This document shows positions 11,000-49,143 of a stretch of DNA of 64,000 nt, in pieces (within the stretch, counting starts at the first letter, position 1; every line of letters begins with the position of its first letter). The position numbers and the translations under genes were made by a program. The notes under the pieces were generated by a model. It saw nothing but the letters and a program-made list of their open reading frames with translations, was not told where the DNA came from and did no database searches. Source of the DNA: Candidatus Nomurabacteria bacterium RIFCSPLOWO2_01_FULL_42_17 (GTDB taxonomy: Bacteria; Patescibacteriota; Minisyncoccia; Phycocordibacterales; UBA9973); assembly GCA_001785985.1 (NCBI GenBank), contig MFVE01000008.1, positions 8,751-72,750 of the forward strand. Reading direction: 5' to 3'.

Positions 11000-11082
11000 A
11001 AGACCTGTCCCGTACTAAATTTTTGATTACATGGTATATTGATAAATATTAATAGATAAAATTTTAGTACTGGGATGGTCTT
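11000..11082 (+). repeat. 83-bp imperfect-palindrome intercistronic element, copy X (AAGACCTGTCCCGTACTAAATTTTT-N33-AAAATTTTAGTACTGGGATGGTCTT). Its right arm contains the annotated ATG of the PBP2 gene.
   Basis: The two 25-nt arms match in 19 of 25 positions as inverted repeats, with T/A runs flanking the loop. A second copy lies at 49063-49143 in the same orientation relative to transcription. Confidence 0.6.
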
Positions 11083-12805
11083 CCGAAAATTTAGAAAAAC
11101 CCCCCGCCATGGCGGGGTAAACAAAAGTAAAAATACTTTCGTCGAAACGGACGAAATTTTTCTTGATTCAAAAAATCTGCAAAACTTTGACCGCCAACAA
11201 TTCGAAGGCCGGATAGAAAAACCGATTCCTAAAAAAACCATTAATTTCATCGGTATTTTTTTCCTTTTTATGACAATTATCTTTGCGAGTCGCCTGACAA
11301 ATCTGCAAATCCAAAATGGCGATGTGTATAAAAAGAGAAGTGAAAATAATATTTTAGAAAAAGTGAATATTTTTACGGAGAGAGGAATAATCTATGATCG
11401 AAATGGACTTGAACTAGCTTGGAATAAAAAGAGAGAAAATGAAGAAGGGGATCCGTCTCTCTTGTACACTCGCGCTTATATGTCGCCTGGGTTCTCACAC
11501 ATCTTGGGATATGTGAGCTATCCAGCCAAAGACAAAGACGGAAATTTTTGGCAAACTGAATTTATAGGTAAAGATGGCTTGGAAAAACAATACCAAAATA
11601 AAATAAAAGGCGAAAACGGATCAAAAATAATAGAGACAGACGCTCGGCGGGTCATCCATTCGGAAAATATTATCAACATTCCTGAAAAAGGAGACGATTT
11701 AAAGACAAGCATTGATCGGAGAATTCAGACGGCATTATTTTCTTTCATTAAAAATTTGGCGCAAAACAGCGGGTTTTCGGGCGGAGCTGGAATCATCATG
11801 GACATTCGAAATGGAGAAATCTTAACTGCTACCAGCTTTCCGGAATACAATTCTGAGATTCTTTCTTTGGGTAAGGATGCAAACAGCATTAAAAGCTATA
11901 TCACTGATAAAAGAAAATTCTTTTTAGATAGAAATGTTTCCGGACTTTATACTCCGGGTTCAATCGTCAAACCCTTTTTTGGCTTGGGCGCTCTAGTGGA
12001 AGGCGTGATCGATCCATACAAAAAAATCCTTTCGACCGGCTCTATTTCCATTCCAAATCCCTATTTCCCGGATCAAAAAACTGTTTTTAAAGACTGGCGA
12101 GTAAATGGCTGGACAAATATGGCCGAAGCCTTAGCAGTTTCTTCCGACGTTTATTTCTATGAGATCGGCGGAGGTTTTGAAAACCAGAAAGGGATAGGCA
12201 TCGCCAATATCGAAAAATACGCGAAGATGTTTGGTTTCGGAGAGAAAACCGGAGTTGACTTGCCGGATGAAACATCGGGCACAATTCCCAGTCCAGAGTG
12301 GAAAGCTGCAAATTTCAAAGGAGACATCTGGCGTATAGGAGACACCTACAACACGGCTATCGGGCAATATGGTTTTCAAGTCACTCCCATAGAAATGGTT
12401 CGAGCGATCTCCGCGATTGGAAACGGCGGCAAACTTTTAACACCGCATTTTATCTTGGGTGATAAGGAAAAAGAAAATTCAGTCAGGGCGGTAAATTTAC
12501 CCAAAGAGCACTTCGATGTGGTGCATGAGGGCATGCGCCAAGCGGTCACTTACGGCACCGCGTTAGCTTTAAATGTGCCTTATGTAGAAGTAGCAGCAAA
12601 GACTGGTACCGCTCAGCTGGGAGTAGCTAAAAATAAAGTGAACTCATGGGTTGTCGGTTTTTTCCCTTATAAAAATCCCAAATACGCTTTTGCAATAATG
12701 ATGGAAGCCGGCCCTGCCGCCAATTCGATCGGAGCTTCGTCTGTAATGCGGGAGCTTTTAGACTGGATGGCAATCAATACTCCAGAATATTTTGTTTTGC
12801 ATTAA
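11075..12805 (+). CDS. Penicillin-binding protein 2-type peptidoglycan D,D-transpeptidase
   Basis: 576 aa. N-terminal TM segment, PBP dimerisation domain, and a transpeptidase domain with SxxK (GSIVKPF), SxN and KTGT motifs. The start codon lies inside the palindromic element, so the true start is uncertain. Confidence 0.88.
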   Translation: MVFRKFRKTPRHGGVNKSKNTFVETDEIFLDSKNLQNFDRQQFEGRIEKPIPKKTINFIGIFFLFMTIIFASRLTNLQIQNGDVYKKRSENNILEKVNIFTERGIIYDRNGLELAWNKKRENEEGDPSLLYTRAYMSPGFSHILGYVSYPAKDKDGNFWQTEFIGKDGLEKQYQNKIKGENGSKIIETDARRVIHSENIINIPEKGDDLKTSIDRRIQTALFSFIKNLAQNSGFSGGAGIIMDIRNGEILTATSFPEYNSEILSLGKDANSIKSYITDKRKFFLDRNVSGLYTPGSIVKPFFGLGALVEGVIDPYKKILSTGSISIPNPYFPDQKTVFKDWRVNGWTNMAEALAVSSDVYFYEIGGGFENQKGIGIANIEKYAKMFGFGEKTGVDLPDETSGTIPSPEWKAANFKGDIWRIGDTYNTAIGQYGFQVTPIEMVRAISAIGNGGKLLTPHFILGDKEKENSVRAVNLPKEHFDVVHEGMRQAVTYGTALALNVPYVEVAAKTGTAQLGVAKNKVNSWVVGFFPYKNPKYAFAIMMEAGPAANSIGASSVMRELLDWMAINTPEYFVLH

Positions 12806-12832
12806 TCCCGATATATTGATATAATGTAATCC

Positions 12833-13060
12833 ATGCGTAGAGCATATAAACTTTTGATTTTGGGCATTTGGGTGGTGATATTACCATACCTCGGATTTCC
12901 AAGTTTCTGGAAAAATATTTTAGTAACCATCTCTGGGCTCGGACTCATTTTTTTTAGTTACGTGTTATATAAAGAATCCAAAATAAAAGAAGTAAAAAAA
13001 GAGAAAACTTTTGACAATTTTTCAGAAAATAATAATTTTGCTGAAGAAGAAAAAATCTAA
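12833..13060 (+). CDS. Hypothetical small membrane protein
   Basis: 75 aa with two TM helices and an acidic tail. Overlaps the annotated 5' end of ctpA. Confidence 0.4.
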   Translation: MRRAYKLLILGIWVVILPYLGFPSFWKNILVTISGLGLIFFSYVLYKESKIKEVKKEKTFDNFSENNNFAEEEKI

Positions 13061-13067
13061 AAGCCTT

Positions 13068-14282
13068 ATGCAGAAATTTTTGAAAGAAAGATGGAGCGCG
13101 GTGATTATCTTGTCCGTTTTGGGCGCTTTTTTTTGGGGTGTTCATGTCGGGGCGAACAATGTACCCGCAATAGACAAAGTATCTTTAGTTAATAAAGAAA
13201 CTCAAGTTGAAACAGAGGCAGATTTTGCTCCTTTTTGGAAAGTTTGGAATATTATAAACGAAAAATATCCGAAGGCCGACAAAATTGACCAAGAAAAAAT
13301 CTACGGAGCTATTGCCGGCCTTGTAGACTCCTTGGACGACCCCTACAGCGTGTTTTTTACTCCGGATGAGGCAAAATTATTTGAAGAAGAAATAGCTGGC
13401 AATTTTACTGGTGTGGGCATGGAAGTCAGTATAAAGGACAAAATCTTGACAGTCATTGCTCCGCTCAAGGACACCCCCGCTTACAAAGCCGACATTCGTC
13501 CGGGCGATAAAATCCTAAAAATTGATAAGACGATCACTGCCGGCTTAAGCATTGAAAAAGCGATCAAATTAATCAGAGGAGAAAAAGGCACGACAGTAAC
13601 ATTGACGATCGCTCGAGAAGGAGAAAAAGAACCTCTAGAGATAAAAATAGTAAGGGATACCATAGACATACCGACCATAGACACGGAAAAGAGACCAGAT
13701 GGCATTTTTGTTATCAAACTTTATAGTTTTTCTGCCAACTCGGCCAGCCTTTTTCGCAATGCGATCAAAAGCTTCGTAGATTCTAGAAGCGATAAATTGC
13801 TCTTGGATTTGCGAGGAAATCCGGGCGGATATTTGAATGCAGCTGTTGATATGGCCAGTTGGTTCTTGCCAAAAGGTAAAATTGTTGTGACTGAAGACTA
13901 CGGCAACAATAGAGAACCGGAAGTATTCAGAAGCAAAGGTTATGCTATTTTCAATGATAAATTGAAGTTTCTTATTCTGATCGATGGCGGATCCGCTTCA
14001 GCATCGGAAATCCTAGCTGGCGCGATGCAGGACTACGGACGCGCAAAGCTTGTGGGCAGCCCAAGTTTCGGCAAGGGCTCTGTGCAAGAAGCGATCAAAG
14101 TTACCTCCGATACTCTTTTGAAAATCACCGTAGCTAAATGGCTCACCCCGAATGAAAATTCTATTTCAGAAAAAGGACTGACTCCAGACTATCCAGTGGA
14201 AGTTACAAAAAAAGATTTAGAAAATAAGAAGGATGCGCAATTAGAAAAGGCCGTAGAGTTGTTGCTTAGTGGAAAGTTATAA
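13068..14282 (+). CDS. ctpA: Carboxyl-terminal processing protease (S41 family, PDZ domain)
   Basis: The ORF-track start is 13011; the probable start is the internal Met at 13068 (MQKFLKERW...), which precedes a signal/TM segment. PDZ domain plus S41 catalytic region (GNPGGY...SASASEILAGAMQD...GKGSVQ). Confidence 0.85.
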   Translation: MQKFLKERWSAVIILSVLGAFFWGVHVGANNVPAIDKVSLVNKETQVETEADFAPFWKVWNIINEKYPKADKIDQEKIYGAIAGLVDSLDDPYSVFFTPDEAKLFEEEIAGNFTGVGMEVSIKDKILTVIAPLKDTPAYKADIRPGDKILKIDKTITAGLSIEKAIKLIRGEKGTTVTLTIAREGEKEPLEIKIVRDTIDIPTIDTEKRPDGIFVIKLYSFSANSASLFRNAIKSFVDSRSDKLLLDLRGNPGGYLNAAVDMASWFLPKGKIVVTEDYGNNREPEVFRSKGYAIFNDKLKFLILIDGGSASASEILAGAMQDYGRAKLVGSPSFGKGSVQEAIKVTSDTLLKITVAKWLTPNENSISEKGLTPDYPVEVTKKDLENKKDAQLEKAVELLLSGKL

Positions 14283-14306
14283 AGTTCTTAAAGTTATAAA
14301 GTAAAG

Positions 14307-14750
14307 ATGAAAGTAATATTCTTACAAGATGTGCAAAGAGTGGGTAGAAAACATGATGTAAAAGAAATAAATGACGGTTATGCGGTAAATTTTCTTTTAC
14401 CTAGAAAGTTGGCCGAGCTTGCAACTCCCAGGGCAATTTCTGAATTAGAAAAAAGAAAGAAAAATATAGAAATAGAGAGGGAAGTGCAAGAAAATTTACT
14501 CCTGAAAAACTTAGAAGAAATAAAAGGGAAAGTGATAACTATCAAAACAAAAGCTGATGAAAAAGGACATTTATTTTCTAAAATTCACAGCAAAGAAATC
14601 ATTGCAGAAATGAAAGCGCAAAATCATGCTCATATCGGTGAAGAATTTATTGTCTTAGAAAAACCAATCAAAGAAATAGGGGAGTTTGAAATTCCCATTT
14701 CTATCAAGGGAAAGAAATCTTCGTTTAAACTTGTAGTGGAAAAAATCTAA
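14307..14750 (+). CDS. rplI: 50S ribosomal protein L9
   Basis: 147 aa. MKVIFLQDV...GYAVNFLLP N-terminal domain typical of L9. Confidence 0.9.
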   Translation: MKVIFLQDVQRVGRKHDVKEINDGYAVNFLLPRKLAELATPRAISELEKRKKNIEIEREVQENLLLKNLEEIKGKVITIKTKADEKGHLFSKIHSKEIIAEMKAQNHAHIGEEFIVLEKPIKEIGEFEIPISIKGKKSSFKLVVEKI

Positions 14751-14767
14751 AACCAGAGCTATATTGT

Positions 14768-15040
14768 CTAAATAATATTGACTATTTTCTTTACAGCTGT
14801 CTTGCCGTTAAAAGAAGTCTTGCGTCTAGAGCCAAACTTTACAGTACCGTCCTTTAGAGCGAAAAGAGTGTCATCTTTGCCTATACCGACGTTGTTGCCA
14901 GCCATGACCGTAGTACCGCGCTGACGAACGATAATAGCCCCAGATTGGGCCTTTTCCCCATCATAAAGCTTAATACCGAGGTATTGTGGATTTGAATCTC
15001 TTAAATTTTTGGCGGTTCCGCCAGCTTTTCTATGTGCCAT
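14768..15040 (-). CDS. rpmA: 50S ribosomal protein L27
   Basis: 90 aa. [12 protein letters not shown]...[15 protein letters not shown] signature. Confidence 0.93.
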
Positions 15041-15085
15041 AAAATATTGTATAATCCAATAACAAAATCAAGTATAATTCATTAT

Positions 15086-15457
15086 ATGGAAAAAATCAAG
15101 CAATTCTTGAAAAGTGAGCAGGGAAAAGATGTTTTGATAGTTATTATCGTCATTTTAGTGGGCTTGGGTTCGTTTGAATTAGGCAGATTATCCAAGGAAA
15201 ACAGCTCTTCAGGCATAAAAATCGAGTATAAAGATCAAATAAAAAACATAAAAAACCAGGAAGCCAGCGCTATTTTATCTGTGCCTGCAATTTCAAATTC
15301 ATCTCAAAAATCTTTTTTTGCCTCGAATAGGGGAACAAAATATTATTCGATCGGATGTTCGGCTGGTAAAACTATTAAACAAGAAAACAGGGTCTATTTT
15401 ACCACCAAAGAAGAGGCCGAAACGGCGGGATATGAGCTTTCCAATTCGTGTAGATAA
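15086..15457 (+). CDS. Membrane-anchored protein with a C-terminal Ada-type metal-binding-like domain
   Basis: The ORF track starts at 15032; the likely start is MEKIKQF at 15086. One TM helix. The C-terminus (YYSIGCSAGKTIKQENRVYFTTKEEAETAGYELSNSC) matches the Ada_Zn_binding pattern Y-x4-C...EN..FF...AE.AGY..C. Confidence 0.5.
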   Translation: MEKIKQFLKSEQGKDVLIVIIVILVGLGSFELGRLSKENSSSGIKIEYKDQIKNIKNQEASAILSVPAISNSSQKSFFASNRGTKYYSIGCSAGKTIKQENRVYFTTKEEAETAGYELSNSCR

Positions 15458-15732
15458 AACACATGGTACACAACATATATTGTGCGACACGGTATTTCTT
15501 TCAACAAAGGGCTTTTAGACCACTTCCCTTTAAATTACTTCACACTATTAAATAGATCTTTGAACCAATTTAGAATCCCAGCCCAAGTTAAATGAAAGTA
15601 ATCTAGAATACCTGATATGGTGATCCCGAAATAACGCATCAAAAGCAGAGCGATCACGATAATAATTATTAGTTGTAGAAATCCCCTGTTTTGATTTTTT
15701 AGATTATTTTTCATCTTTATATTTTATCATAG

Positions 15733-16998
15733 TTATTTATACGGAGGCAAATAATTCATTGGGTCAAGATAAGCATTGGTGGCTGAAATTGGCTGGGTTA
15801 GAGTTTTACCTGGATAAGACTTACTATCAAATGAGTCTACTTTTACTCCACTTGATACATACAAGGACAAATGCAGATGAGGACCAGTAGAAGAGCCTGT
15901 ATTGCCACTGTATCCTATCACAGCGCCTCTTGCCACTTGTTGTCCCACTTTTACTTTACTTAGAGACAGATGCGCATAAGTACTAGAAAGCCCATTATTG
16001 TGTTCAATAAATATCCACTTACCAAAAGATGCTTTTGGACAACAAATGTCTGTATCACCGACTCCTTTGACGATACCATCTGCAACAGATTTTACTGGAG
16101 TGCCTACAGGTGCTCGAAAATCTGTTCCACGATGAAATCCTCCCCATCTGGGAGCATATGGAGAAGTTACAAATATGCTATCAAGGGGCCAACCTAAAAT
16201 TCTGCCAGAAGGTATCTTGGATGGATCTAGGATGAATTTCAATTGTGATTCATAACCTTCTAATTCCCTTTCAAAAGCCGCTTTCTTTGCTAGCTGATCT
16301 TTCAATAATTTTTGATAATTTGCTTCGCTATTTTTTGTCTGAATCAAAAGCTTATTCTTTTCATTTGTATTTTGAATTACTATCTTTTGCTGATCCGAAA
16401 GTTTGGATTTCAAGAGGACAAGTTCATTTTTGGCGCTAATAGTTTCCTCTCTAGTATCTTCCAACTCGCTTTTTATCTCTTTTAATTCCAATATTTTTTC
16501 TCTAATTTTTTCTCGAATAGCAACAATGTTATCTATATCATTCCAGACTGCCGTAAAATCATTTTTAGATAAGATGGTCTCCAATATATTATTTTCCTCC
16601 AATTCATAAGTATCTCGAATACCCAAGCTAATGGATTCCACATCATTTTCGATAGAATTTTGCTTCGCGCCAATATCAGAGCTCAAACTCTGTATTCGAA
16701 GATTTGTTTTATCGATTTTCGTTTGAGTGATATTTATATCAACTACTAATTTTTTCTTGGTCAGATCCAATTCTTTGATTGATTTGCTCAAAGAATTTTT
16801 CTGCTCGCCAATATTCCCCAGTTCAATTTGATATATTCTTATTTCTTCTTCCAGTTTGGCAATGTCGGCATCTTTTTGATTTATTTTATTTTGCAGTTCC
16901 TGTGCTGTCTGCGCGTTAGAAAAAGCTAGAGGAATTATCAAAAATACTCCAAAAAATATCAGACTAAATAGCTTTTTGTAATCTTGATAATGTTTCAT
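15733..16998 (-). CDS. M23 family metallopeptidase with N-terminal coiled coil (EnvC/NlpD-like murein hydrolase or activator)
   Basis: 421 aa. Signal/TM segment, a roughly 230-aa heptad-rich coiled coil, and a C-terminal LytM/M23 domain (HRGTDFRAPVGTPV, HLHLSL). Confidence 0.85.
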   Translation of the reverse strand: MKHYQDYKKLFSLIFFGVFLIIPLAFSNAQTAQELQNKINQKDADIAKLEEEIRIYQIELGNIGEQKNSLSKSIKELDLTKKKLVVDINITQTKIDKTNLRIQSLSSDIGAKQNSIENDVESISLGIRDTYELEENNILETILSKNDFTAVWNDIDNIVAIREKIREKILELKEIKSELEDTREETISAKNELVLLKSKLSDQQKIVIQNTNEKNKLLIQTKNSEANYQKLLKDQLAKKAAFERELEGYESQLKFILDPSKIPSGRILGWPLDSIFVTSPYAPRWGGFHRGTDFRAPVGTPVKSVADGIVKGVGDTDICCPKASFGKWIFIEHNNGLSSTYAHLSLSKVKVGQQVARGAVIGYSGNTGSSTGPHLHLSLYVSSGVKVDSFDSKSYPGKTLTQPISATNAYLDPMNYLPPYK

Positions 16999-18274
16999 TT
17001 TTTCCTATGATCGAAGCAATAATAAAAGGATCTGGAGATTTGTCCAAGCCTGATAGGGCATAGCGAACAGGGTGCAACAGCTCTCCCCTACTGCCTAGAT
17101 TATTAGCGATCAGTATCAAAGTATTTTTAATAATTTCTGTAGTGAAATTTTCTTCAGTTAGATCTTCTAGGGCTTTGATCGCCAATTTTAAATTGCTAAT
17201 AATTTTTTCTGGAGCTATATTTTTATATATAAGTTTTGCTTTGTCTATCGTGGGTGACTTGAAAAATAAATCGAGCTCTCCCCTTTCGATCATATCTTTC
17301 ACATCTCCCCATTTTGAAATTCGTTCAAGAACAAGCGGAACTAATTTGGGATTTTTCATTTCAGCTGGCAACCACTCTAAAATATTTTTCTCTATTTCGG
17401 CTGGTGGCAGCCTTTTCATGTGTTCCTTGTTTAGCCAGTCTAGTTTTTCAGAATTAAACACTCCCCCGCTTTTTTGGATCTTATGTAAATTAAATTTTTC
17501 TATAAGTTCTTCTAGAGTAAAGACTTCTTGTTCGCCGCCTGGATTCCACCCAATCAGCGCCATAAAATTTATAATCGCTTCTGGTAAATACCCCAGATCT
17601 CTATATTCCAAAGCAGGTATCACTTCCGGATCTCGCTTGGAAAGTTTGGATTTGTCTTTACCTAGAATAAGCGGCATGTGCGCGTAAAGCGGGCGGGGGG
17701 CGCCGATAGCTTCTTGGATCAGAATCTGACGTGGAGTATTAGCGATGTGTTCTTGGCCGCGGATGACATGAGTGACCGCCATTTCAAAATCGTCCACCAC
17801 GACTGTGAAATGATAGAGTGGCTCAGTAAGACTTCGGGCGATAATAAAATCTTTCAAATCTGTCGTGTCGAATTCTATATCGCCCAAAACAATATCGTTG
17901 AATACGATTTTTTTATTTGGATTCTTAAAACGAATTACTTCGCTTCTCTGCCCTGCTTCTTTTATCTCTTCTTTTGATACATAAGCAGATCCATCAGCGA
18001 TCATTTTCTCTAAATATTTTTTATATATTTCTGTCCGCTCTGATTGCCTGAAAAATTGGTCCGGTTTTAATCCCAACCATTCAAAAAGATCCAAAAATCC
18101 ATCTTCATATTCTTTTTTAGATCGCTCTTTGTCGGTATCTTCACTACGCAGAATATAAGTGCCCTTATTTTGCTTTGCAAAAAGGTAATTATATAAGGCC
18201 GAACGAACCCCACCCAGATGGAAATGACCCGTCGGCGATGGCGCAAATCTGGTTACAATCTTTTGGTCTGGCAT
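16964..18274 (-). CDS. gltX: Glutamyl-tRNA synthetase
   Basis: Class I synthetase with HIGH (PSPTGHFHLGG) and KMSKS (KLSKR) motifs. The likely start is MPDQK at 18274, inside the longer ORF-track call. Confidence 0.9.
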   Translation of the reverse strand: MPDQKIVTRFAPSPTGHFHLGGVRSALYNYLFAKQNKGTYILRSEDTDKERSKKEYEDGFLDLFEWLGLKPDQFFRQSERTEIYKKYLEKMIADGSAYVSKEEIKEAGQRSEVIRFKNPNKKIVFNDIVLGDIEFDTTDLKDFIIARSLTEPLYHFTVVVDDFEMAVTHVIRGQEHIANTPRQILIQEAIGAPRPLYAHMPLILGKDKSKLSKRDPEVIPALEYRDLGYLPEAIINFMALIGWNPGGEQEVFTLEELIEKFNLHKIQKSGGVFNSEKLDWLNKEHMKRLPPAEIEKNILEWLPAEMKNPKLVPLVLERISKWGDVKDMIERGELDLFFKSPTIDKAKLIYKNIAPEKIISNLKLAIKALEDLTEENFTTEIIKNTLILIANNLGSRGELLHPVRYALSGLDKSPDPFIIASIIGKNETLSRLQKAI

Positions 18275-18356
18275 ACCTATATAATAACACAAAAATACAA
18301 CCCCTCCCTAGCCCTCCCCTTATCAAGGGAGGGGAAAATACAAATACAAAACGAAC

Positions 18357-19343: not shown

Positions 19344-19351
19344 TTTTCTTA

Positions 19352-19372
19352 TGTAGACGTCCGACGTCTACA
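19352..19372. repeat. REP1 palindrome copy (TGTAGACGTCCGACGTCTACA), 3' flank of RAYT1
   Basis: Perfect palindrome with 10-bp arms. Confidence 0.8.
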
Positions 19373-19376
19373 AGTG

Positions 19377-20084
19377 TTAATCATCATTAAAGTGAAAGTC
19401 GATTTCTTCTAAATTATCACGTCTATCTTTAAAAGATTTCTTCCCCCTACTCTCTCGCACTATATCAATTATTTCTTTTCCGTGTCGGTAAAAATTTTCA
19501 TAACCGCCAAACCATTCAAGAAATTTATTTCCTTCTTTGGGATTTATAATAAAAAAATTACCTTTTTCATATTCTTCTTCACTACTACGCACTAATTTTA
19601 ATTTATTTTTTGAAATATTATGCACTTTATAATTCCACATTACATAAGCAAAAATCATTTCAAAATAATTTTCCTTTTCAGCATAATTTGATTTAAATTT
19701 CCCTTGAAGCAACGCTCCGCTTCGCCGATTTTTGTCATTAAAATATCTTGTGTATCCTCCTTGTAATCTTTTCATAAATTCACTGATACCGCCATCAATT
19801 TCCTGTTTTAAAATAAAATGAAAATGATTCGGATTAAGACAATATTCAACAATAGAAACCAATCTTTCTTTATTTTTAGGAATTTGGAGACGTCGGACGT
19901 CTACAAATGATTCTTGTTCGCGAAGTGCTAGTTCTAAACTTCCCACAGGATCTTTATAGGAAAATAATTTCATAGATAATAAAAATCTTGCAGCATCTTT
20001 TTCATCCATGAAAATAGAGCGCTTATCAACGCCTCTATTGTAAATGTGGAAATAAGAACCAGAAATAAAGGGATGTTTTCTCAT
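19377..20084 (-). CDS. IS200/IS605-like HUH (Y1) tyrosine transposase of the REP-associated (RAYT/COG1943) type
   Basis: 235 aa. YHIYNRG first-strand block, HUH motif NHFHFIL, and a C-terminal LLQGKFKS...Y..AYVMWN helix region matching the LWQ.R(F/Y)..H...YIH.NP catalytic-Tyr region of RAYTs. Paralogous to 54271-55026. Confidence 0.7.
   Translation of the reverse strand: MRKHPFISGSYFHIYNRGVDKRSIFMDEKDAARFLLSMKLFSYKDPVGSLELALREQESFVDVRRLQIPKNKERLVSIVEYCLNPNHFHFILKQEIDGGISEFMKRLQGGYTRYFNDKNRRSGALLQGKFKSNYAEKENYFEMIFAYVMWNYKVHNISKNKLKLVRSSEEEYEKGNFFIINPKEGNKFLEWFGGYENFYRHGKEIIDIVRESRGKKSFKDRRDNLEEIDFHFNDD
19888..19908. repeat. REP1 palindrome copy (GAGACGTCGGACGTCTACA) embedded in-frame in RAYT1, encoding VDVRRL
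   Basis: Near-perfect copy, read directly. It lies about 200 bp from the gene's 5' end in the loop between the YHxYNRG block and the HUH motif. Confidence 0.8.
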
Positions 20085-20100
20085 ATCTTTAGTATATCAT

Positions 20101-20121
20101 TGTAGACGTCGGACGTCTACA
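20101..20121. repeat. REP1 palindrome copy (TGTAGACGTCGGACGTCTACA), 5' flank of RAYT1 / 3' flank of murG
   Basis: Perfect palindrome. Confidence 0.8.
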
Positions 20122-20124
20122 CGG

Positions 20125-21267: not shown

Positions 21268-21280
21268 ATACTTTATAACT

Positions 21281-22390: not shown

Positions 22391-22398
22391 GATTTAAT

Positions 22399-22430: not shown

Positions 22431-22434
22431 TAAC

Positions 22435-24964: not shown

Positions 24965-24969
24965 AAATT

Positions 24970-38482: not shown

Positions 38483-38558
38483 ATTTTAATAACACTTTTA
38501 TAAACTTTTGGCCCATTTTCTCATTTTGATAATTTTTCTACTGTGCTAGAATGCCCTT

Positions 38559-39977: not shown

Positions 39978-39983
39978 TCAGCT

Positions 39984-40595: not shown

Positions 40596-40596
40596 T

Positions 40597-40624
40597 AATC
40601 CCGCATCGGCGGGATTATTTTATA
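40597..40624. terminator. Bidirectional intrinsic terminator between convergent recR and rplU (AATCCCGC-ATCG-GCGGGATT + ATTTTAT)
   Basis: 8-bp perfect stem with a 4-nt loop. T-rich on the plus strand and A-rich upstream, which reads T-rich on the minus strand. Confidence 0.55.
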
Positions 40625-40953: not shown

Positions 40954-41049
40954 ATGGCTCATATTATATGAAATTTCATAAAAAGGCAAGCCCCGCCTCA
41001 TTGAAATTAAAAATTTGGCGGCGGGGCAAGTATTTGATATACTTACCCT

Positions 41050-42066: not shown

Positions 42067-43517
42067 TTTCAGGTAAAAAAATAATATTGTATAACACTCT
42101 CTCGCGGACAAAAGAAAACTTCGCCCCTATTAATAAAAAGGAAGTTCGAATGTATACTTGCGGACCGACGGTGTATAACTATGCCCATATAGGAAACCTG
42201 AGGTCTTATGTCTTTTCTGATATTTTACAAAAAACTTTAGAGTATTCTGGATATAGAGTAAAACGTGTTATGAACATCACCGATATTGGGCACCTTTCCA
42301 GCGATGCTGACTCGGGAGAAGATAAAATGACAAAGGGACTTTTGCGTGAAGGTAAAACTCTTACGCTCAAAAATATGCGTGAGCTTGCAGAATTTTATAC
42401 AGAAAAATTCAAAGAAGATTTAAAAGCTTTGAATATTAAAATACCTACCGATCTATACTTCGCGAGTGATTATGTCAAAGAAGATATCGAACTCATCCAA
42501 AAATTAGAAAAAAAGAGTTACACATACCAAATTAGCGATGGGATTTATTTTGATATTTCTAAAATGCCGGATTATGGAATTCTGTGGGGAGGCAAAGGGA
42601 ATAAGGAAACCAAAAATGAATCGCAAACTAGAATTGGAGAAAATTCCGAAAAAAGAAACTCGGAAGATTTTGCTCTGTGGAAATTTGATAAGAAAATAGG
42701 TTTTGAGTCGCCTTGGGGTACAGGATTTCCCGGTTGGCATATTGAATGCTCGGCAATGGGTATAAAATTCTTGGGCGAACAATTTGATATTCATACGGGA
42801 GGAATTGATCATATTCCTGTACATCATACTAACGAAATCGCGCAATCAGAATGCGCAACCGGCAAAAAACCTTTCGTGAAATATTGGATACATCACGAAT
42901 TCTTAGACACGAGCAAGGGAGAGAAAATGGCAAAATCTGGCGAAAATTTTATTACTTTGCGCACCTTGACTGAAAAAGGAATGCACCCGATAACTTATAG
43001 ATTCTGGCTCTTGATGGGCCATTACCGCACTAAGCTAAACTTCGTCTGGGAGGCCCTGGAGGGCGCAGAAACGGCCCTAAAACGGCTTTATAATCTATAT
43101 AGTGAGCTCGGCCCCTCCTCCGCCAAGGCTTCGGCGGGCAAGGAAGATGTCGGCAAAGTAAATAAAGAATACCAAAATAAATTTAAAGAATTTATAGATG
43201 ATGATCTGGATACTCCGAGAGCTTTGACCGTCTTGTGGGATGTATTAAAAGATGAAAATATTTCCAATGCCGACAAAAAAGCGACCGTTTTGGATTTTGA
43301 TAAAGTACTGGGGCTAGGCTTCTCCACCCAAGGCGGACCAGCCTCGGGCTGGGAAAATGACCCTAACGCAGAAAAAATTTCTACATTAGTAGAAGAGCGC
43401 GAACAAGCTCGCCAAAATAAAGATTTCCAAAAATCCGACGAGCTCCGCAAAGAAATAAATTCTCTAGGTTATGAGGTAAAGGATACAACCGAGGGACAAA
43501 AGATTTCTAAGATTTAA
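42063..43517 (+). CDS. cysS: Cysteinyl-tRNA synthetase
   Basis: 484 aa. HIGH (NYAHIGN), KMSKS (KMAKS), the zinc-ligand Cys in MYTCGPTVY, and a DALR anticodon-binding domain. Contains a GC-rich patch at about 43030-43150. Confidence 0.9.
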   Translation: MISGKKIILYNTLSRTKENFAPINKKEVRMYTCGPTVYNYAHIGNLRSYVFSDILQKTLEYSGYRVKRVMNITDIGHLSSDADSGEDKMTKGLLREGKTLTLKNMRELAEFYTEKFKEDLKALNIKIPTDLYFASDYVKEDIELIQKLEKKSYTYQISDGIYFDISKMPDYGILWGGKGNKETKNESQTRIGENSEKRNSEDFALWKFDKKIGFESPWGTGFPGWHIECSAMGIKFLGEQFDIHTGGIDHIPVHHTNEIAQSECATGKKPFVKYWIHHEFLDTSKGEKMAKSGENFITLRTLTEKGMHPITYRFWLLMGHYRTKLNFVWEALEGAETALKRLYNLYSELGPSSAKASAGKEDVGKVNKEYQNKFKEFIDDDLDTPRALTVLWDVLKDENISNADKKATVLDFDKVLGLGFSTQGGPASGWENDPNAEKISTLVEEREQARQNKDFQKSDELRKEINSLGYEVKDTTEGQKISKI

Positions 43518-43849
43518 CCCAACTTCCCTCCTAATACCGCACCATCTTTGTCGGGCGTAATTAATATCACCTTTCCTTCTGCGTTAACCACGCCGAGCGT
43601 CAGAACTTCTGACTCAAAGGGTCCTACTTTTCTAACCGGAAAATTTACTACACCCAGAACAACCTTTCCCATCAAATCCTCTTTCGTGTACAAAGCAACG
43701 ATTTGAGAAAAAGAATTCTTAATTCCAATTTCAGGACCAAAATCTATTCTTAACTTATATCCAGGCTTTCTGGCTTCTGGATAATCATTTGCTTCGATTA
43801 TTTTCCCCACCCTAATATCTAATTTTTCAAAATCTTCTATTGTTGCCAT
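43514..43849 (-). CDS. tRNA-binding domain protein (CsaA/Trbp111/EMAP-like OB fold)
   Basis: 111 aa. FEKLDIRVGKIIEA...SQIVALY...GKVVLGVVNFP pattern. Confidence 0.75.
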   Translation of the reverse strand: MATIEDFEKLDIRVGKIIEANDYPEARKPGYKLRIDFGPEIGIKNSFSQIVALYTKEDLMGKVVLGVVNFPVRKVGPFESEVLTLGVVNAEGKVILITPDKDGAVLGGKLG

Positions 43850-43858
43850 ATAATTTTA

Positions 43859-44437
43859 TTATACCTTAAAAATTTTCTTGCGATATATACAAAATACGAT
43901 AGCTATATTTATTAATATATTATATATACCAAAAGAATAGATAGTGAAGATCCAGTTTTTGATAATAAATAAGCCCAAGATGTTACCAAATATACCCGTT
44001 ATGTAGGTTACAGAGTTTTCTGTTTCTGGAAATTTCCATGACTTTATGAGCGTGGGTATTGCTGCTAGGCCATCGCTTAGGATTGCAAATACTATTGATA
44101 TGCCTAGATTGTGAGTTACTACATAGAGTATCAAGGACAGAAGAGCGAGTAACCCACAAATTATATCTAAAGTATTTAACTTCCAATAAGCATTTTTTTT
44201 AAAGAGAAAAAGAACGATGACAAGAAGAGGTCCAAAGCCAGCCATAAATACAGGCAACACAGAAAGACCTGCTCCAGCTTTTAGCTGTAGAAATACCGCA
44301 ATAAAAGGAGCCAACATCCAAAGAAACCAAGAAACTAAATTGGGTCGCGTATTCCCGTAAATAATACTCTTGAGATACCAAAATATACCTACAAGGCTTA
44401 CGAAAACTCCAATATAAATGATTTTTTCGGGAAGCAT
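43859..44437 (-). CDS. Hypothetical integral membrane protein (about 6 TM)
   Basis: 192 aa, hydrophobic, with no recognisable family. Confidence 0.45.
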   Translation of the reverse strand: MLPEKIIYIGVFVSLVGIFWYLKSIIYGNTRPNLVSWFLWMLAPFIAVFLQLKAGAGLSVLPVFMAGFGPLLVIVLFLFKKNAYWKLNTLDIICGLLALLSLILYVVTHNLGISIVFAILSDGLAAIPTLIKSWKFPETENSVTYITGIFGNILGLFIIKNWIFTIYSFGIYNILINIAIVFCIYRKKIFKV

Positions 44438-44440
44438 ATA

Positions 44441-45517
44441 TTATATGCCCTCTTTTTTTAGCTCTTCTATGAGTTTGCGAGATTCGCGAGAAAGTTTTCC
44501 GGGAAGTTTGATGTTGAGTTTGATCAAGAGATCTCCGCGTTTGTTTTTCCCGATGGGCACGCCCTTTCCTCGCACGCGCAGAATTTCATTTACAGATACG
44601 CCCTCCGGAATTGTAACTTTGATCTCACCATCTAGAGTTTGGATTGGATATTCTGTACCCAATAGCGCTTCAGAAAGCTTTAAATTCAAATTCATCGATA
44701 AATCATTGCCATCACGTTTGAAGACCGGGTGAGAAGCCACATTTATTTTTATATAAAGATCGCCAGTAGTACCCTTCGAAACGGCTTCGCCAAAACCCGT
44801 CATTCGAATCATTTCCCCATCTCGTATGCCAGCTGGAATAACAATGGAAACTTCTTCCTCACGACGGAGCACCCCTTTGCCTTTGCATGTCTCACAAATC
44901 TCTTTTGGCACTTCACCTGTACCTAAACAAACTTCACAGATTTTTGTACTCGCGATATTTCCAAAAATTGTTCTTTTTGATTCACGAATATGCCCTTGGC
45001 CATTGCAAGTCTTGCAAGTTTCCATCTTTGTTCCCGCTTTCGCTCCAGAGCCATGACAAGTAAGACAATTGGAAGTTTTGGTAATCAAAATTTTTCGATT
45101 AGTGCCGAAAATAGAATCAGAAAAAGAAATTTGAACTTCGGTCGAAATATCCCGCCCACGTCTCGCTTCCCTTCTACCTCCGCCGCCGCCAAAGAAATCA
45201 CTGAAAATGTCGTTCAAATTTCCAAAATCAAAATCCGCCCCTCCACCCCGCTCGAAACCAGAAAAATCGAAGCCTTCAAACCCAGACTGCGAGCCGCCAA
45301 AGCCTTGAGCGTCGGCGCTGCCGTATTGGTCGTATTTTGAACGCTTAGCATCATCAGAAAGCACTTGATATGCCTCATTCACTTGCTTGAATTTTGCCTC
45401 ATTCCCCTCTTTTTTATCAGGATGATATTTATGCGCGAGCTTGTAGAAGGCCTTTTTTATTTCGTCCTTGGATGCGCCCTTATTTACTCCCAATGTTTCG
45501 TAATAGTCTTTTGCCAT
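44441..45517 (-). CDS. dnaJ: Chaperone DnaJ
   Basis: 358 aa. J-domain with HPD, a G/F region, and four CxxCxGxG zinc-finger repeats. Confidence 0.92.
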
Positions 45518-45524
45518 AAATTAT

Positions 45525-46994
45525 TTATATCATAGGCTCGGCTTCTTGTGAAGTTTTTTCTTTTTCGCCTTTCTCTTTTTCTTTTCTTTTCGCTCTGCCT
45601 TCGATGATCGCTTTTTCTTCAGCGCTACGAATGATCGTGGCCTCTTCTTCCGCGATCAGTTTGGCCGCATCGTCTTTTGGTATTGAATACTTTCGGCGCG
45701 AAGCATCAATAATTTCTTTCCTGAAAGATTTATGAGTCGCCGGCAAAACCCGGAGAGTTTCCGCTGAAAAAGGATCATATGATTCACCGTCGATCGTCAT
45801 TTTCACATAGATTTCGCCAACGGCGAGATTGATCATGTCTTTTACATCGAAAAGAGGCGCAAACTCTGGCTTTAATTTGACCGCATCTTCTCCACCGACG
45901 CGAAAAGTTATAACATTTCCCACATTTCCGAGCACTGCTTGATGCACCTTGGGCAAGATCTGGCCTACATACTGGTGCGCGATGGTCAGGTTTAGCCCGT
46001 ACTTGCGAGCTTCGGATAAAATATTTTCGAAAGTTTGAGTAACGACATTTTGAAACTCATCTACGTATAGATAAAAGTCTAGGCGATCTTTTTCCGGAAT
46101 AGCCGCGCGCTCCATTCCCGCCTGCTTTATTTTAGTCAAAAATATCGAACCGAGAAAAGAAGAATTTTCTTCGCCCAGACGGCCCTTGGAAAGATTGATG
46201 AAAATTATTTTCTGTTCATTCATCAATTTGCTGATATCTATCTTATTTTGTTTCTGGCCGAAAATGTTGCGTAAAAGCGGATCCGAGAGGAATTGCCCGA
46301 GCTTGTTTACTAGTGGAATGATAGCATCAGTATCAAACTTCTCGGACCAATCGGCAAATTCGATAGCGAAGAATCTTTTGACCATGTCATCCGTGATGTA
46401 TTCCACCACCTTCTGTCTGTAATTTCGGTCAGTCAGCATCGAGATCATCCCGCGCATCGTCGCGTGCGGATAATCGAGAAGCGCGAGACAAGTAAAACGG
46501 AAGACGTGCTCCAAGCGCGGCGTCCAATTTGCCCCGAATTGTTTCTGAAACACTTCGATGAGTCCCTGCGTCAGCTGAAACTTGAACATCGGGTCCACAT
46601 TCGCGAGCGGATTAAAAGATGCCGGGAAATCAATATCAGCTGGATCAATAATACACACGTCCTCCATTCTCTCTTTCGGCACATAGTCCAGCATTGCATC
46701 GATGACATCTCCATGCGGATCAATCAGGCAGAGACCATGCCCATAGGTCACATCTTGCCGAAGCATCAGTTCGAGCAGTTTCGTTTTGCCCACGCCGGAC
46801 TTGCCAATAATATAAAGATGGCGGCGGCGGTCCACCCGCTTGATGCCAAAGATAAATTTCTTTTCCTCTAAAGCGGCCACATAATTCGTCCGCCCAATGA
46901 AAGAAACATCTTCAGGTTTGACCTTGCCGAAGACCGGCAACTCTGGCGGCGGCGGTCCGTATTTGATTATTTGCACTCGATTCGGCTTTGGCAT
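45525..46994 (-). CDS. Soluble HerA/FtsK-superfamily P-loop ATPase (DUF87 / T4CP-VirD4-like 'type IV secretion DNA-binding domain' type), copy A
   Basis: 489 aa. Walker A IIGKSGVGKT followed by LIDPHGD, Walker B LYVDEFQN, and an AHQ motif. No TM segment. Paralogue of 49502-51610. Confidence 0.7.
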   Translation of the reverse strand: MPKPNRVQIIKYGPPPPELPVFGKVKPEDVSFIGRTNYVAALEEKKFIFGIKRVDRRRHLYIIGKSGVGKTKLLELMLRQDVTYGHGLCLIDPHGDVIDAMLDYVPKERMEDVCIIDPADIDFPASFNPLANVDPMFKFQLTQGLIEVFQKQFGANWTPRLEHVFRFTCLALLDYPHATMRGMISMLTDRNYRQKVVEYITDDMVKRFFAIEFADWSEKFDTDAIIPLVNKLGQFLSDPLLRNIFGQKQNKIDISKLMNEQKIIFINLSKGRLGEENSSFLGSIFLTKIKQAGMERAAIPEKDRLDFYLYVDEFQNVVTQTFENILSEARKYGLNLTIAHQYVGQILPKVHQAVLGNVGNVITFRVGGEDAVKLKPEFAPLFDVKDMINLAVGEIYVKMTIDGESYDPFSAETLRVLPATHKSFRKEIIDASRRKYSIPKDDAAKLIAEEEATIIRSAEEKAIIEGRAKRKEKEKGEKEKTSQEAEPMI

Positions 46995-47093
46995 AATTTA
47001 TTATTGTATCATATTCCCCTCTTGAGGGGTGGCTTTAGCCGGGGTGGAAAATCCATCCACCTCCCCCTAAAGGGTACTCCTCAAGAGGAGAAC

Positions 47094-48755
47094 TTAGTAC
47101 ACTTCTTGCTGATAACATTTCTCACAATAGACTATTTCTGGACGCTCGGGAGCATAATTTGTAGTTATTTCTTTTTTACATTTCACGCAATTACGATCCC
47201 AGAATTTATATGGACCGCGATGCGTAATGCGGTCTCGGTGGCGACAATAAAAACATTTTCGCGGTATCGGAAGGTTCATTTTTCGATAAAATAAAAGCTC
47301 TTGATTGATGATTTTATAATTACGATTGCAATCTATACACTTTAAAATTTCATCCGTGATAGAGTCTGACACATCTTTTATATGATCTGGAATATCCTCT
47401 GGTTTCATCGTTTCCTTCCCTTCTGTTTTTTGGATATCATCTTCCCATCTAAAACCAGTCTTTAGCACTTCCTCTTTTGTCATAGGCATATTGTCTTGCG
47501 CAATACTTTCGTTATAAGCAAAAGGTGCAAGCTCAGGTGGAATCATTAGCCCATATAAATCTTTTTGTTTTAATTCTTCAATTATTTTCGCTCGCAGTCT
47601 CTCATATTCTTCTTTTGAATACTGTTTATTTAAAATTGAATATTCGCCATGATGTAACGCGTCGCAACCGATGCAATTTTTACAATTTCTGACATAAAAT
47701 CCATATAAAATATCTGTAGAATTCTCTGCGCCATATGTGCCAATCACATTACTACATAGACCGGTGGCAACCACTTCAAGCATTCGTTCTGATTTAGTGC
47801 CATAGCCGATAGTGTCCATAGAATCCTTGACTCCTTTTGAGGAAAATATATATCTAGAATCTTCTGCATTGGTAGCTTCAAAAGAATCTTTAACATTTTT
47901 GCACTCAAATAAATAATCTCCAGTGGAATTGACTGTCTTAATATTATTATTTTCGCGCATTGGAAAATCTAGAATGAATTTTTGAAATTCTTTTTTGAAT
48001 TCTTCTATCTTTTCATAACTGCCCATGATTTCACCCACTTTTTTCTTATACTCTTCTGGCTGCATTGGGTGATTAAAAAAATAATACGATTTATTATTTA
48101 AATTCACACAACCGAAACAATTCATCAATCCTCGGCAATTTAAAACAAAAGCAGAATCCACTGAACCGGTGATATTTTGGCCAAAAAGTATGCCCGCAGA
48201 CTCTTGAACATTTATAGATTCATAACATCTTTCAAAACTGGTGCCAAAATACATATCAGATGAATCATTACCATGCCTGACTCCCCTTGAATAAAGTAAT
48301 TCTTCGGCCGGACTAGTATTAAAAACTAAATAGCAATTTCTACAGCCAGTAGACATATTTGTGTATTCACTATTCACGTTTGCTCCGGAACCCAGAGAAA
48401 TATATGTAGTAATTTTTGGCACTTTTTTGAGAAGCTCGCCGAACTGCTCTAAAAAAGATTTATTTTCATCATAGTCCATCGCGTAATTTTTCGGCTCCCA
48501 TTTTTCGGAGTAAAAACAATCGTAGCAATAAATAGTGTAGGGAGATTTTGGATTATACATAGAGATAATACCCTTCCCGCAAAGTCCGCACTGACGTCCA
48601 GAATAAAGAGTCGTCTCATTTCGAAACATCGCGCGCATTTTAAAACGGCACGGAGGGCAGACTTTTGGTGATGGCACCTTCATCTTTTCATAAAATCCAA
48701 GATCGTCCAAATCTAGAATAAAATCTTGCCTGCATTTTTTACAATTTTGCTGCAT
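47094..48755 (-). CDS. Cys-rich protein with duplicated FYxK-x2-(V/L)P-x-P-x2-C-x2-CR zinc-ribbon modules at both ends (copy A, partly degenerate Cys repeats)
   Basis: 553 aa. N-terminus CKKCRQDF...FYEKMKVPSPKVCPPCR. C-terminus FYRKMNLPIPRKCFYCR...CVKCKKEITT...IVYCEKCYQQEVY. Two internal YSILNKQYSKEEYE-type blocks. Paralogue of 55602-57308. Confidence 0.6.
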   Translation of the reverse strand: MQQNCKKCRQDFILDLDDLGFYEKMKVPSPKVCPPCRFKMRAMFRNETTLYSGRQCGLCGKGIISMYNPKSPYTIYCYDCFYSEKWEPKNYAMDYDENKSFLEQFGELLKKVPKITTYISLGSGANVNSEYTNMSTGCRNCYLVFNTSPAEELLYSRGVRHGNDSSDMYFGTSFERCYESINVQESAGILFGQNITGSVDSAFVLNCRGLMNCFGCVNLNNKSYYFFNHPMQPEEYKKKVGEIMGSYEKIEEFKKEFQKFILDFPMRENNNIKTVNSTGDYLFECKNVKDSFEATNAEDSRYIFSSKGVKDSMDTIGYGTKSERMLEVVATGLCSNVIGTYGAENSTDILYGFYVRNCKNCIGCDALHHGEYSILNKQYSKEEYERLRAKIIEELKQKDLYGLMIPPELAPFAYNESIAQDNMPMTKEEVLKTGFRWEDDIQKTEGKETMKPEDIPDHIKDVSDSITDEILKCIDCNRNYKIINQELLFYRKMNLPIPRKCFYCRHRDRITHRGPYKFWDRNCVKCKKEITTNYAPERPEIVYCEKCYQQEVY

Positions 48756-48765
48756 AGTTTTATAT

Positions 48766-49068
48766 TTATGCGCTAATATACTGATACTGATTCATAAATT
48801 TATAAGAAAAAGGTTCTGCGTATTTTTCCAAAATACGTCGCTCAAAAGCATCCAACTTATCGTAGCCAAGAATAAAATTTTTAATTACGCTCCATTCTTC
48901 GCGTCCGGCCGGTTTAATATCTTTAAAAGATAAAATGTTATTAACTATGCCCAGCGCGCGATTTTTTGCATTCTCCGCGGCCTGCACTTTATGTGAATCA
49001 AAAAAAGAAAAAAGTCTGCCTATTTCAGGATATAAGTTCGCCATATAAAAAAGAGAGTTCTTTTCCAT
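48766..49068 (-). CDS. Hypothetical protein
   Basis: 100 aa. Its ATG is supplied by the 83-bp palindromic element. Confidence 0.4.
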   Translation of the reverse strand: MEKNSLFYMANLYPEIGRLFSFFDSHKVQAAENAKNRALGIVNNILSFKDIKPAGREEWSVIKNFILGYDKLDAFERRILEKYAEPFSYKFMNQYQYISA

Positions 49069-49143
49069 CCCAGTACTAAAATTTTAAATTGTTATTAATA
49101 TTGACCATTTGTTTTACTCAAAAATTTAGTACGGGACAGGTAA
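49063..49143 (-). repeat. 83-bp imperfect-palindrome intercistronic element, copy Y (reverse complement of copy X). Supplies the ATG of the 48766-49068 gene.
   Basis: Arms CCATCCCAGTACTAAAATTTT and AAAAATTTAGTACGGGACAGG are identical to the reverse complement of the copy X arms over 21 nt each. Confidence 0.6.

Follow-up and report, generated by a model that had tools for sequence, protein, structure and literature searches.

In the 64,000-nt stretch of Candidatus Nomurabacteria bacterium RIFCSPLOWO2_01_FULL_42_17 analyzed here (contig MFVE01000008.1, positions 8,751 to 72,750; hereafter the window), a short imperfect palindrome lies immediately before the start codons of two genes. The first copy, X, occupies positions 11003-11074 of the plus strand and comprises a left arm (11006-11025), a loop (approximately 11026-11056) and a right arm (11057-11074); the ATG right after it (11075-11077) opens the gene of a PBP2-like transpeptidase (11075-12805, 576 aa). 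Four nucleotides before the first base of X (A1) lies the TAA stop (10996-10998) of a hydrophobic 91-aa open reading frame (ORF) at 10723-10998 on the same strand, which is regarded as only a probable gene because it is absent from the public gene calls. The second copy, Y, lies on the minus strand (49069-49141, with A1 at 49141), between the TAA stop (49145-49147) of a DUF5674 gene (49145-49495), which is 3 nt before A1, and the ATG (49066-49068) of a 100-aa ORF (48766-49068) directly 3' of the right arm. The initial annotation had placed the repeat between an upstream stop and a downstream start, and had taken the ATG adjoining X as the start that PBP2 probably uses. The placement holds for both copies, each of which ends in ATG, and the public gene call has the same transpeptidase start at 11075.

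The copies share a left box, CCTGTCCCGTACTAAATTTTTGA, which is exact at 11004-11026 (+) in X and at 49118-49140 (-) in Y, and a right box, TAAAATTTTAGTACTGGGATGG, which is exact at 11057-11078 (+) in X and at 49065-49086 (-) in Y. These boxes, of 23 nt and 22 nt, had no match in 100 shuffles of the window even when up to 3 mismatches were allowed, which bears out the exact-armed repeat first noticed. The spacers between the boxes measure 30 nt (X) and 31 nt (Y) and differ in sequence; of the two loop classes described below, the loop of X is a degenerate class A and that of Y is class B. The sense RNA of X is predicted to fold with -27.7 kcal/mol (z -5.3) and that of Y with -22.5 kcal/mol (z -4.0). 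In the X fold, the ATG pairs with U4, G5 and U6 of the left arm (U-A, G.U and U.G). A size of 83 bp had been given for the repeat; the long hairpin is real, but the unit defined by the family is 72-73 nt, from A1 to the G before the ATG, and the extra 6 bp are peculiar to X, where the fold pairs AAGACC (11000-11005) with GGTCTT (11078-11083) within PBP2 codons 2-3 on the plus strand. A family-wide extension of the helix into codon 2 was rejected, as A1-Y3 pair with the bases that follow the ATG just as often as shuffles predict; the six extra pairs of X are therefore local.

Only one PBP2 ortholog of the X junction was found among the fetched loci (L194, 51% identity), and its upstream region is not comparable. 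PBP2 residues 1-22 do not align with this ortholog, and the 5' coding region (codons ~10-28) contains two G+C-rich palindromes, CCCCGCCATGGCGGGG and TTTCGTCGAAACGGACGAAA, at 11102-11117 and 11137-11156. Both were flagged as terminator-like by the scan (3 found versus 0.2 expected), and they may be in-frame palindrome insertions. Y in turn contains a short upstream ORF (uORF) of the class B type at 49076-49108 (-), reading ATG GTC AAT ATT AAT AAC AAT TTA AAA TTT TAG, which opens in the apical loop and continues across the right arm to a stop 9 nt 5' of the main ATG. Immediately upstream of the Y operon lies a gene for a TraG/VirD4-like type IV coupling protein (49502-51610, -) with TrwB_AAD_bind, T4SS-DNA_transf and treble-clef zinc finger domains.

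X and Y belong to a large family. A scan of one genome per species with the pattern CCCGTACTAAA-N30-60-TTTAGTACTGGG found at least 122 canonical copies on at least 117 stretches in at least 67 assemblies; all canonical-family counts (n = 122, 76, 74, 48 and 46) are taken among the matches listed and are lower bounds. The hosts are all Candidatus Nomurabacteria, Paceibacterota or Patescibacteria. At least five to six copies are found per genome, with up to six in one assembly, and the 64-kb window itself holds three elements. The initial annotation had proposed checking whether further copies abut start codons, and they do: ATG directly follows the element in 118 of the 122 copies, and GTG does in one more. 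The ORFs opened in this way have a median length of about 230 aa and are highly diverse; from their N-termini we take them to be housekeeping genes, including rpsB, L15, L17, S14, S16, ftsA, rodA, obg, lepA, nusG, metK, purA, clpP, dnaJ, dnaB, gyrB, ruvA, ddl, pilC and others. Among the 76 intercistronic copies, the stop of the upstream same-strand ORF lies 1-4 nt before A1 in 52.

Conservation extends to positions outside the search pattern. The 5' end reads (t)ACYTGT (A1 97%, C2 90%), and TTTTTGAtTA, TAAAATT, a bulged T in GTAC-T-GGG and a T.T mismatch are likewise conserved. The loops fall into two conserved classes, of which A reads TTGATTACGGGRYATAAAGATAAAGATTATTAAT and B reads TTGAKTAAAACAAATGACCACTATTATTAACAATTT. 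The left arm contains stop codons in all three reading frames, and the upstream ORFs of L041 and L091 end inside it. Short-loop variants with the canonical ends TACTTGTCCCGTAGTGAGC..CTCTACTACTGGG occur at L057 ~6355-6395 and, in a minus-strand scan, at L064 ~6264; the L057 copy lies in the opposite orientation about 10 nt 5' of the rplO ATG and does not abut the start codon. A paralog family of CxxC-rich proteins of ~550-600 aa with no Pfam match (47094-48755 and 55602-57308, both minus, and L035, L049, L098, L100 and L104) has the N-terminus ..C.xC.KDF.I...D..FYEKI.VP; its genes are often in tandem, and the canonical element precedes some copies.

The family is previously undescribed in the sources searched. 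Rfam 15 gave no match at gathering thresholds over the whole window and, for the X region, only chance-level hits at E up to 10. The tRNA/tmRNA search found none, and no rRNA was found in the window or the fetched loci. Literature searches by keyword and by arm sequence returned only primer coincidences and no description of the element. A phage origin was rejected because viral contigs gave 0 matches, and integron attC, CIRCE and dif-like sites were rejected because they differ in their boxes, spacing and genomic arrangement.

By comparing the N-termini of element-bearing genes with the window and the fetched loci, element-free orthologs were found for many sites. In 65 filled/empty ortholog pairs (55-94% amino-acid identity), the flanks align up to the junction, base for base. 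Upstream of rpsB, for example, L005 has TGCTAGAAT plus 7 nt and then A1, whereas L037 has TGCTAGAAT plus 7 nt and then the ATG (tgctagaat, 7 nt, element and ATGCAA versus tgctagaat, 7 nt and ATGCAA). Similarly, gaggggatataaaat-element-ATGCTTCC in L108 stands against gagggcatataatatATGCTTCC at the window gene starting at 44437 (-), and gaataaat-element-ATG in L001 stands against gaataaaaatATG in L076. For NusG at 90-94% identity, three genomes carry the element at this site and three others do not. The window itself contributes four empty alleles of sites that have the element elsewhere, namely the minus-strand genes starting at 44437, 34731, 45517 and 59351. The element is an insertion exact to the base. 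The canonical junction separates position -1 from the A of the ATG, is ambiguous by one 'A' at most, and no target duplication was seen in the 65 comparisons. The initial annotation had held that the element supplies the ATG of the downstream gene. For the canonical type this fails, in that the empty alleles already have an ATG there, but a sister family does rebuild an ATG, from its terminal A and a following TG.

With its small size and lack of coding capacity (66-75 nt), its multiple copies and its insertion polymorphism, the element resembles a MITE (miniature inverted-repeat transposable element). IS200/IS605-derived palindromic elements (PATE) and REP with RAYT are marked by duplication-free insertion beside a short fixed target, by a conserved guide or GTAG motif and by a Y1 transposase in the genome; the canonical type shows no duplication, has a fixed flank, ATG (CAT on the other strand), and contains no GTAG-type motif. 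In about 1.6 Mb of flanks, no pair of ends 0.3-4 kb apart enclosed a gene, as would be expected of a transposase partner with the same ends; the matching end pairs found were all neighbouring small copies. At orthologous sites, the element is either intact or cleanly absent, with few relics: a half-element in L056, a footprint-like ACCTGT-TGGG-T-ATG in L043 and a footprint in L058. At one site (L048 ~1760-1800), 7 nt separate a canonical copy from the 3' end of the tRNA gene before it. The empty counterpart of this site (L019) has the ATG of the gene 11 nt after the tRNA, which means that the usual mRNA of this gene is a tRNA-processed transcript.

The count of two copies in the window also had to be revised; both are real, but there is a third, divergent one. 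A covariance model built from 121 aligned canonical copies and scanned over the window scored X at 93.3 bits and Y at 88.8 bits, and found a further copy, Z (match 8336-8411, 28.2 bits, E ~1e-3), at the purM/purC junction. Z itself (8341-8406, +) is a perfect 15-bp stem, TCCCGTTAGAAGTT..AACTTCTAACGGGA, with a fold of -25.6 kcal/mol (z -5.1), and differs from the stems of X and Y by many compensatory changes. Its layout is A-TGA-A, then TCCCGTTAGAAGTT .. AACTTCTAACGGGA, then TGAAT, in which TGAA is duplicated on the left (8337-8340, +) and on the right (8407-8410, +). The left duplication, together with A8336, is a relic ATG and contains the stop codon of purM (7326-8339; TGA at 8337-8339), and the ATG of purC (8406-9338) consists of the terminal A8406 of Z and the TG of the right duplication. 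Z-like and further stem variants were found in the fetched loci directly before long ORFs (GTTAGAAAAT/ATTTTCTAAT, GTACGAAAT/ATTTCGTAC and GTTAGAGAT/ATCTCTAAC).

A metagenome scan for Z-type ends gave 126 distinct copies of this sister family. Its ends are terminal inverted repeats, a MITE feature, reading TCCCGT..AC(T)GGGA with stems of 13-22 bp, whereas the canonical arms are imperfect inverted repeats that differ by one indel and wobble positions. A 4-bp target duplication is present in ~99 of 150 sister-family copies, being TGNN at start codons and TTGA, TCTA or TTAG at non-ATG targets. Because of the TGNN duplication, the same five nucleotides, ATGNN, stand on both sides of the element (78 of 126 copies), the ATG of the downstream gene being the terminal A plus the duplicated TG. 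One such event is seen directly, as L105 is filled (ATGGAT, element, ATGGAA) and L067 is empty (ATGGAT). The sister family behaves as a textbook MITE. In 53 of 87 sister copies, an ORF from the duplicated left ATG crosses the hairpin, with an ATGA overlap in 15 and an in-frame continuation in 14; in the canonical type, the left end lacks an ATG and no ORF enters from the left.

Other palindromes were encountered in the course of these scans. Perfect palindromes of the form CCCCGTTAGAGGT-(short G+C-rich loop)-ACCTCTAACGGGG occur at L042 5370-5430, L055 3438-3500, L070 4477-4535 and L087 1331-1390. They have the CCCGTTAGAG arm motif in common with the sister family, are not beside a start codon, and may be related terminator-like or REP-like derivatives. 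Further G+C-rich intergenic palindrome families, TGAAGGACGGTCCTTCACAG (4 copies), GTAGACGTCGGACGTCTACA (3 copies) and CCCCGCCTGCA..GCATTGCGGGCAGGT (3 copies), lie at 54272-55146, 19351-20121 and 24777 / 57903 / 62316, and their sequences are unrelated to the start-codon hairpins.

The helix is maintained by covariation. Only stem positions outside the search pattern were used for this judgement, since pairs selected by the pattern would be circular. Three unconstrained stem positions are paired in 121-124 of the 126 sister copies, with four Watson-Crick pair types, whereas shuffled partners for the same positions gave a mean of 80-89 and a maximum of 99 paired copies. Compensatory stem subfamilies are also found (GTACTAAA/TTTAGTAC, GTTAGAAG/CTTCTAAC and GTACGAAA/TTTCGTAC). 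In the canonical type, the start codon itself is within the helix, with AUG opposite UGU (U6-A, G5.U and U4.G). The single GTG copy has a matching C6, and all seven A5 variants turn the G.U pair into A-U. The stem also retains a bulged U and a U.U mismatch. The sense strand scores 93 bits in the covariance model and the opposite strand 37 bits, and the wobble pairs and asymmetry favor the sense strand. A start codon held in weak or non-canonical pairs of a covarying helix is the arrangement of a start-codon-sequestering translational operator or a hairpin of the RNA thermometer type.

Selection was assessed on loop positions, again outside the search pattern. Loop identity was 0.81 for orthologous sites in different genomes, 0.76 for different sites in the same genome and 0.75 for unrelated pairs. 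In 30 orthologous pairs, the loops were 83% identical, compared with 68% for the upstream flanks and 58% for synonymous third positions. Loops that are better conserved than synonymous sites mean that the element is selected, and, judged by these identities, it is old, under purifying selection and not decaying.

The surrounding genes are mostly without a Shine-Dalgarno (SD) sequence, and many in the window have TGnTAnAAT followed by 6 nt and ATG. Among 725 long ORFs of the window and the fetched loci, TGnTAnnnT occurs exactly 6 nt before the ATG in 65, compared with 1-17 at neighboring offsets, and an SD-like core precedes only 38 (5%). The host lineage thus appears, from these signals, to rely on leaderless mRNAs; literature searches on leaderless mRNAs and the candidate phyla radiation returned nothing relevant, and no report of leaderless reliance for Nomurabacteria was found. 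In the 25-nt gap between the divergent genes 1722-3212 (-) and 3238-4794 (+), at 3213-3237, the sequences upstream of the two genes nearly mirror each other (both strands read ..ATAATATGCTAGTATACACGATATATT ATG), which suggests overlapping face-to-face leaderless promoters.

The same signal is found in front of the element. Among the 46 promoter-proximal copies, which have no close upstream ORF, TAnnnT lies exactly 6 nt before A1 in 16 (9 with TG), and a TTGACA-like -35 is present in many as well. This puts the predicted transcription start at A1, so that the entire element would form the 5' end of the mRNA. In other words, A1 is predicted to stand at +1, where an empty leaderless allele has the A of its ATG. 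The 76 intercistronic copies have no -10 signal before A1.

Based on the family membership, placement, insertion polymorphism, covariation, selection and leaderless, SD-poor context established above, we infer that the hairpin RNA controls translation. The element would be a mobile, transcribed hairpin that masks the start codon and is opened by upstream translation, by a uORF or by an alternative hairpin, a reading to which we give a probability of about one half. The element would be transcribed with its gene and fold into a long AU-rich hairpin, whose 5' end would pair weakly with the AUG, so that the start codon is masked beside an upstream stop codon or the mRNA 5' end and downstream translation needs the stem to be opened. 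Three putative routes of opening can be drawn. At intercistronic sites such as X and Y, a ribosome ending 1-4 nt before the stem would unwind its lower half, freeing the AUG for re-initiation. In class B copies, including Y, a uORF beginning in the open loop would carry a ribosome through the 3' arm to a stop 9 nt before the AUG; a 10-codon uORF is present in 32-36 of the 48 class B copies, and this class is 77% intercistronic. In class A copies, the left arm and the loop motif UACGGGRY could form a proximal hairpin first on the nascent RNA, leaving the AUG free. The motif can pair with the left arm in each of its four common R/Y combinations. In class A, the nascent 5' part has a predicted energy of -10.3 kcal/mol, with 8.2 of 9 left-arm bases engaged in 69 of 74 copies, compared with -2.2 kcal/mol for class B, and class A is enriched at promoter-proximal sites (35 of 74 versus 11 of 48 for class B, Fisher p = 0.0076).

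Several observations weigh against this start-codon-masking hairpin. Transcription, folding and coupling are all read from sequence, and the short gap between stop and stem is by itself no proof of coupling because precise insertion into a compact genome predicts the same. Both the upstream ORF and the alternative hairpin are missing from 11 class B copies at promoter-proximal sites, and about one quarter of class B copies have no uORF ATG. The full hairpin from A1 to the AUG (~-19 kcal/mol) is much more stable than the alternative one (-10), and the AUG would therefore be masked at equilibrium. The half-element L056 keeps the right arm alone before an apparently intact gene. The 100% arm identity is partly an ascertainment effect, since the search pattern fixed the arms, and G.U pairs are rare (~2%) in the sister-family stem, which fits maintenance of a palindrome at the DNA level equally well. 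Finally, neither a target duplication nor, in the flanks searched, a transposase partner was found for the canonical type.

An unlikely alternative is that the element is an excisable leader and its hairpin a processing signal. Cleavage by a host endonuclease, or self-cleavage, between the last G and the A of the AUG would take the element out of the RNA and restore a leaderless mRNA that begins with the AUG. Such excision would suit a strongly leaderless, SD-poor host, and the zero spacing between stem and AUG in 118 of the 122 copies, nearly always with AUG, is what leaderless initiation needs. One mechanism would then cover promoter-proximal and intercistronic copies, insertion before essential genes (such as rpsB, gyrB, dnaB and nusG) is tolerated, and conservation of both sequence and structure, including the fixed bulged U and U.U mismatch, fits recognition by a specific nuclease. 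If so, the DNA insertion would be phenotypically silent, every gene bearing the element, even in mid-operon, would yield a leaderless mRNA, and the leader would be to bacteria what tRNA punctuation is to mitochondria, giving a mobile element an intron-like strategy in a lineage that translates leaderless mRNAs. On the other hand, no known ribozyme or RNA family was matched even at E up to 10, the AUG is itself paired in the helix, an odd place for a cut at the helix end, and the promoter-proximal enrichment of class A and the element-crossing uORFs are left unexplained.

It is rather improbable that the element is a selfish MITE with no host function, a small mobile palindrome targeting ATG or TG-containing sites, of which only the start-codon insertions survive because the rest of the compact genome is coding, with the hairpin simply tolerated. 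The presence/absence polymorphism of NusG at 90-94% amino-acid identity, the inverted repeats, 4-bp duplications and non-ATG targets (TTGA, TCTA and TTAG) of the sister family, the stop codons in all three frames of the left arm, and the degenerate remains in L056, L043 and L058 would all be expected of such an element. However, free decay or recent bursts would not give loops that are 83% identical where synonymous sites are 58% identical, nor a greater likeness between orthologous copies than between copies of the same genome. In addition, sites are intact or cleanly empty with few decayed relics, the canonical type lacks a target duplication, and insertion before essential genes demands that translation be permitted, which is itself a function.

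A site that acts at the DNA level is quite improbable. In this case the arms would be operators of a dimeric regulator, or the loop would be a promoter (TTGAnT..TATTAAT or extended -10) yielding an mRNA with the right arm only. About 12 class A loops, including the ftsA copies L043, L047, L058 and L080, do contain a perfect TGnTATAAT, the loop of Z contains TTGACT-17-TAAATT, and TAAAAT is present in the right arm of all copies. Nevertheless, the promoter scan was empty in the loops of X and Y and its counts equal those of shuffles; the typical class A -35/-10 spacing is wrong (21 nt), the hexamers are not the conserved positions, and the promoters lie upstream, with +1 at A1. Operators need no fixed zero distance to the ATG. 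A conserved indel sets the two arms apart, as do transitions whose G.U pairs exist only in the sense RNA, and the strand asymmetry of the covariance score (93 versus 37 bits) also speaks against a promoter or operator. An internal promoter as a general feature is ruled out by the spacing and the promoter scans, a minority of loops having a perfect extended -10.

An intrinsic terminator or attenuator fused to a start codon, as proposed in the initial annotation, is highly improbable: a long hairpin does lie between co-oriented genes and U runs occur inside the element, but these runs are within the stem or loop with no U-tract 3' of the stem, where the AUG and coding sequence come next, the stem is AU-rich with just three G-C pairs at its base, no terminator was called by the scan at X, Y or Z, and 46 of the 122 copies lie directly after a promoter, where termination would abolish the expression of rpsB, gyrB and other genes. 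The companion idea of a portable cassette or MITE-like repeat keeps its start-codon-tied insertion and the MITE hallmarks of the sister family but loses its terminator part.

By these data, about 5% of the genes of this lineage, including rpsB, gyrB, dnaB, ftsA, nusG and PBP2, have their start codon buried in a conserved predicted hairpin of ~-20 kcal/mol, which behaves as a mobile insertion, yet is under purifying selection. Bacteria of the candidate phyla radiation are uncultured, and their rules of gene expression are largely unknown. The element offers a testable system for how ribosomes find an internal, structured AUG without an SD sequence, and for how a mobile element colonizes the start codons of essential genes without killing its host. 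It is also a strong marker of true start codons and transcript starts in metagenome-assembled genomes of Nomurabacteria, and a candidate portable stop/start cassette for synthetic operons.

Among known systems, MIRUs (mycobacterial interspersed repetitive units) are the closest analogue, the general class being bacterial MITEs and co-transcribed palindromes. MIRUs are described as inserting at start codons with a coupled ORF, limiting the effect on expression (PMC12548453). Like the present elements, they are short, apparently mobile repeats at operon start codons whose downstream gene is still translated (PMC12548453). Insertion at the start codon is found in both canonical and sister types here; an internal, in-phase, -4-coupled ORF as in MIRUs is absent from the canonical type and is found in part in the sister family, where the ORF opened by the duplicated ATG traverses the element in 53 of 87 copies and ends in an ATGA overlap in 15. 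Leaderless mRNAs abound in the MIRU host, too. The MIRU unit is a direct repeat of ~46-100 bp, often in tandem, and has no long hairpin, whereas the present elements are single palindromes with a stem that includes the start codon, and their hosts are Patescibacteria.

The Correia/CREE elements of Neisseria, ERIC, RUP/BOX and REP are similarly small, non-coding and multi-copy, with inverted-repeat ends and presence/absence polymorphism, and they fold in mRNA; the sister family likewise has inverted ends and a 4-bp duplication. CREE provide promoters and are bound or cleaved by RNase III, and can alter the expression of adjacent genes (PMC2649163). None of these families has been described at zero distance from a start codon, replacing a leaderless +1, or rebuilding an ATG. 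The canonical type also differs from bacterial MITEs in lacking a duplication and in its fixed asymmetric 5' end, ACYTGT, and a 2024 review of MITEs makes no mention of 'start codon'.

In terms of mechanism, the coupling proposed for X and Y resembles that of phage f1 VII/IX and of the MS2 coat, lysis and replicase genes, where a hairpin masks a start and an upstream ribosome opens it (PMC12548453). Those cases are locus-specific, whereas here one cassette lies at dozens of unrelated junctions per genome and at mRNA 5' ends. In the shunting of the cauliflower mosaic virus 35S leader, a stable stem follows a few nucleotides after the end of a short ORF, and ribosomes resume translation just 3' of the stem; in the bypassing of T4 gene 60 and of the yeast mitochondrial 'byps', mobile hairpin insertions are flanked by identical codons. 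The ATGNN..ATGNN around sister copies recalls the latter arrangement. Shunting differs in being eukaryotic, and bypassing in producing one polypeptide from matched take-off and landing codons inside an ORF; nothing in the present sequences shows either process. New, in comparison with all of these systems, are a hairpin that takes in the AUG and is tied to the start codon at zero distance, the predicted takeover of the +1 position of leaderless genes, the ATG rebuilt from a terminal A and a duplication, and a family so broad and so well conserved within an uncultured phylum.

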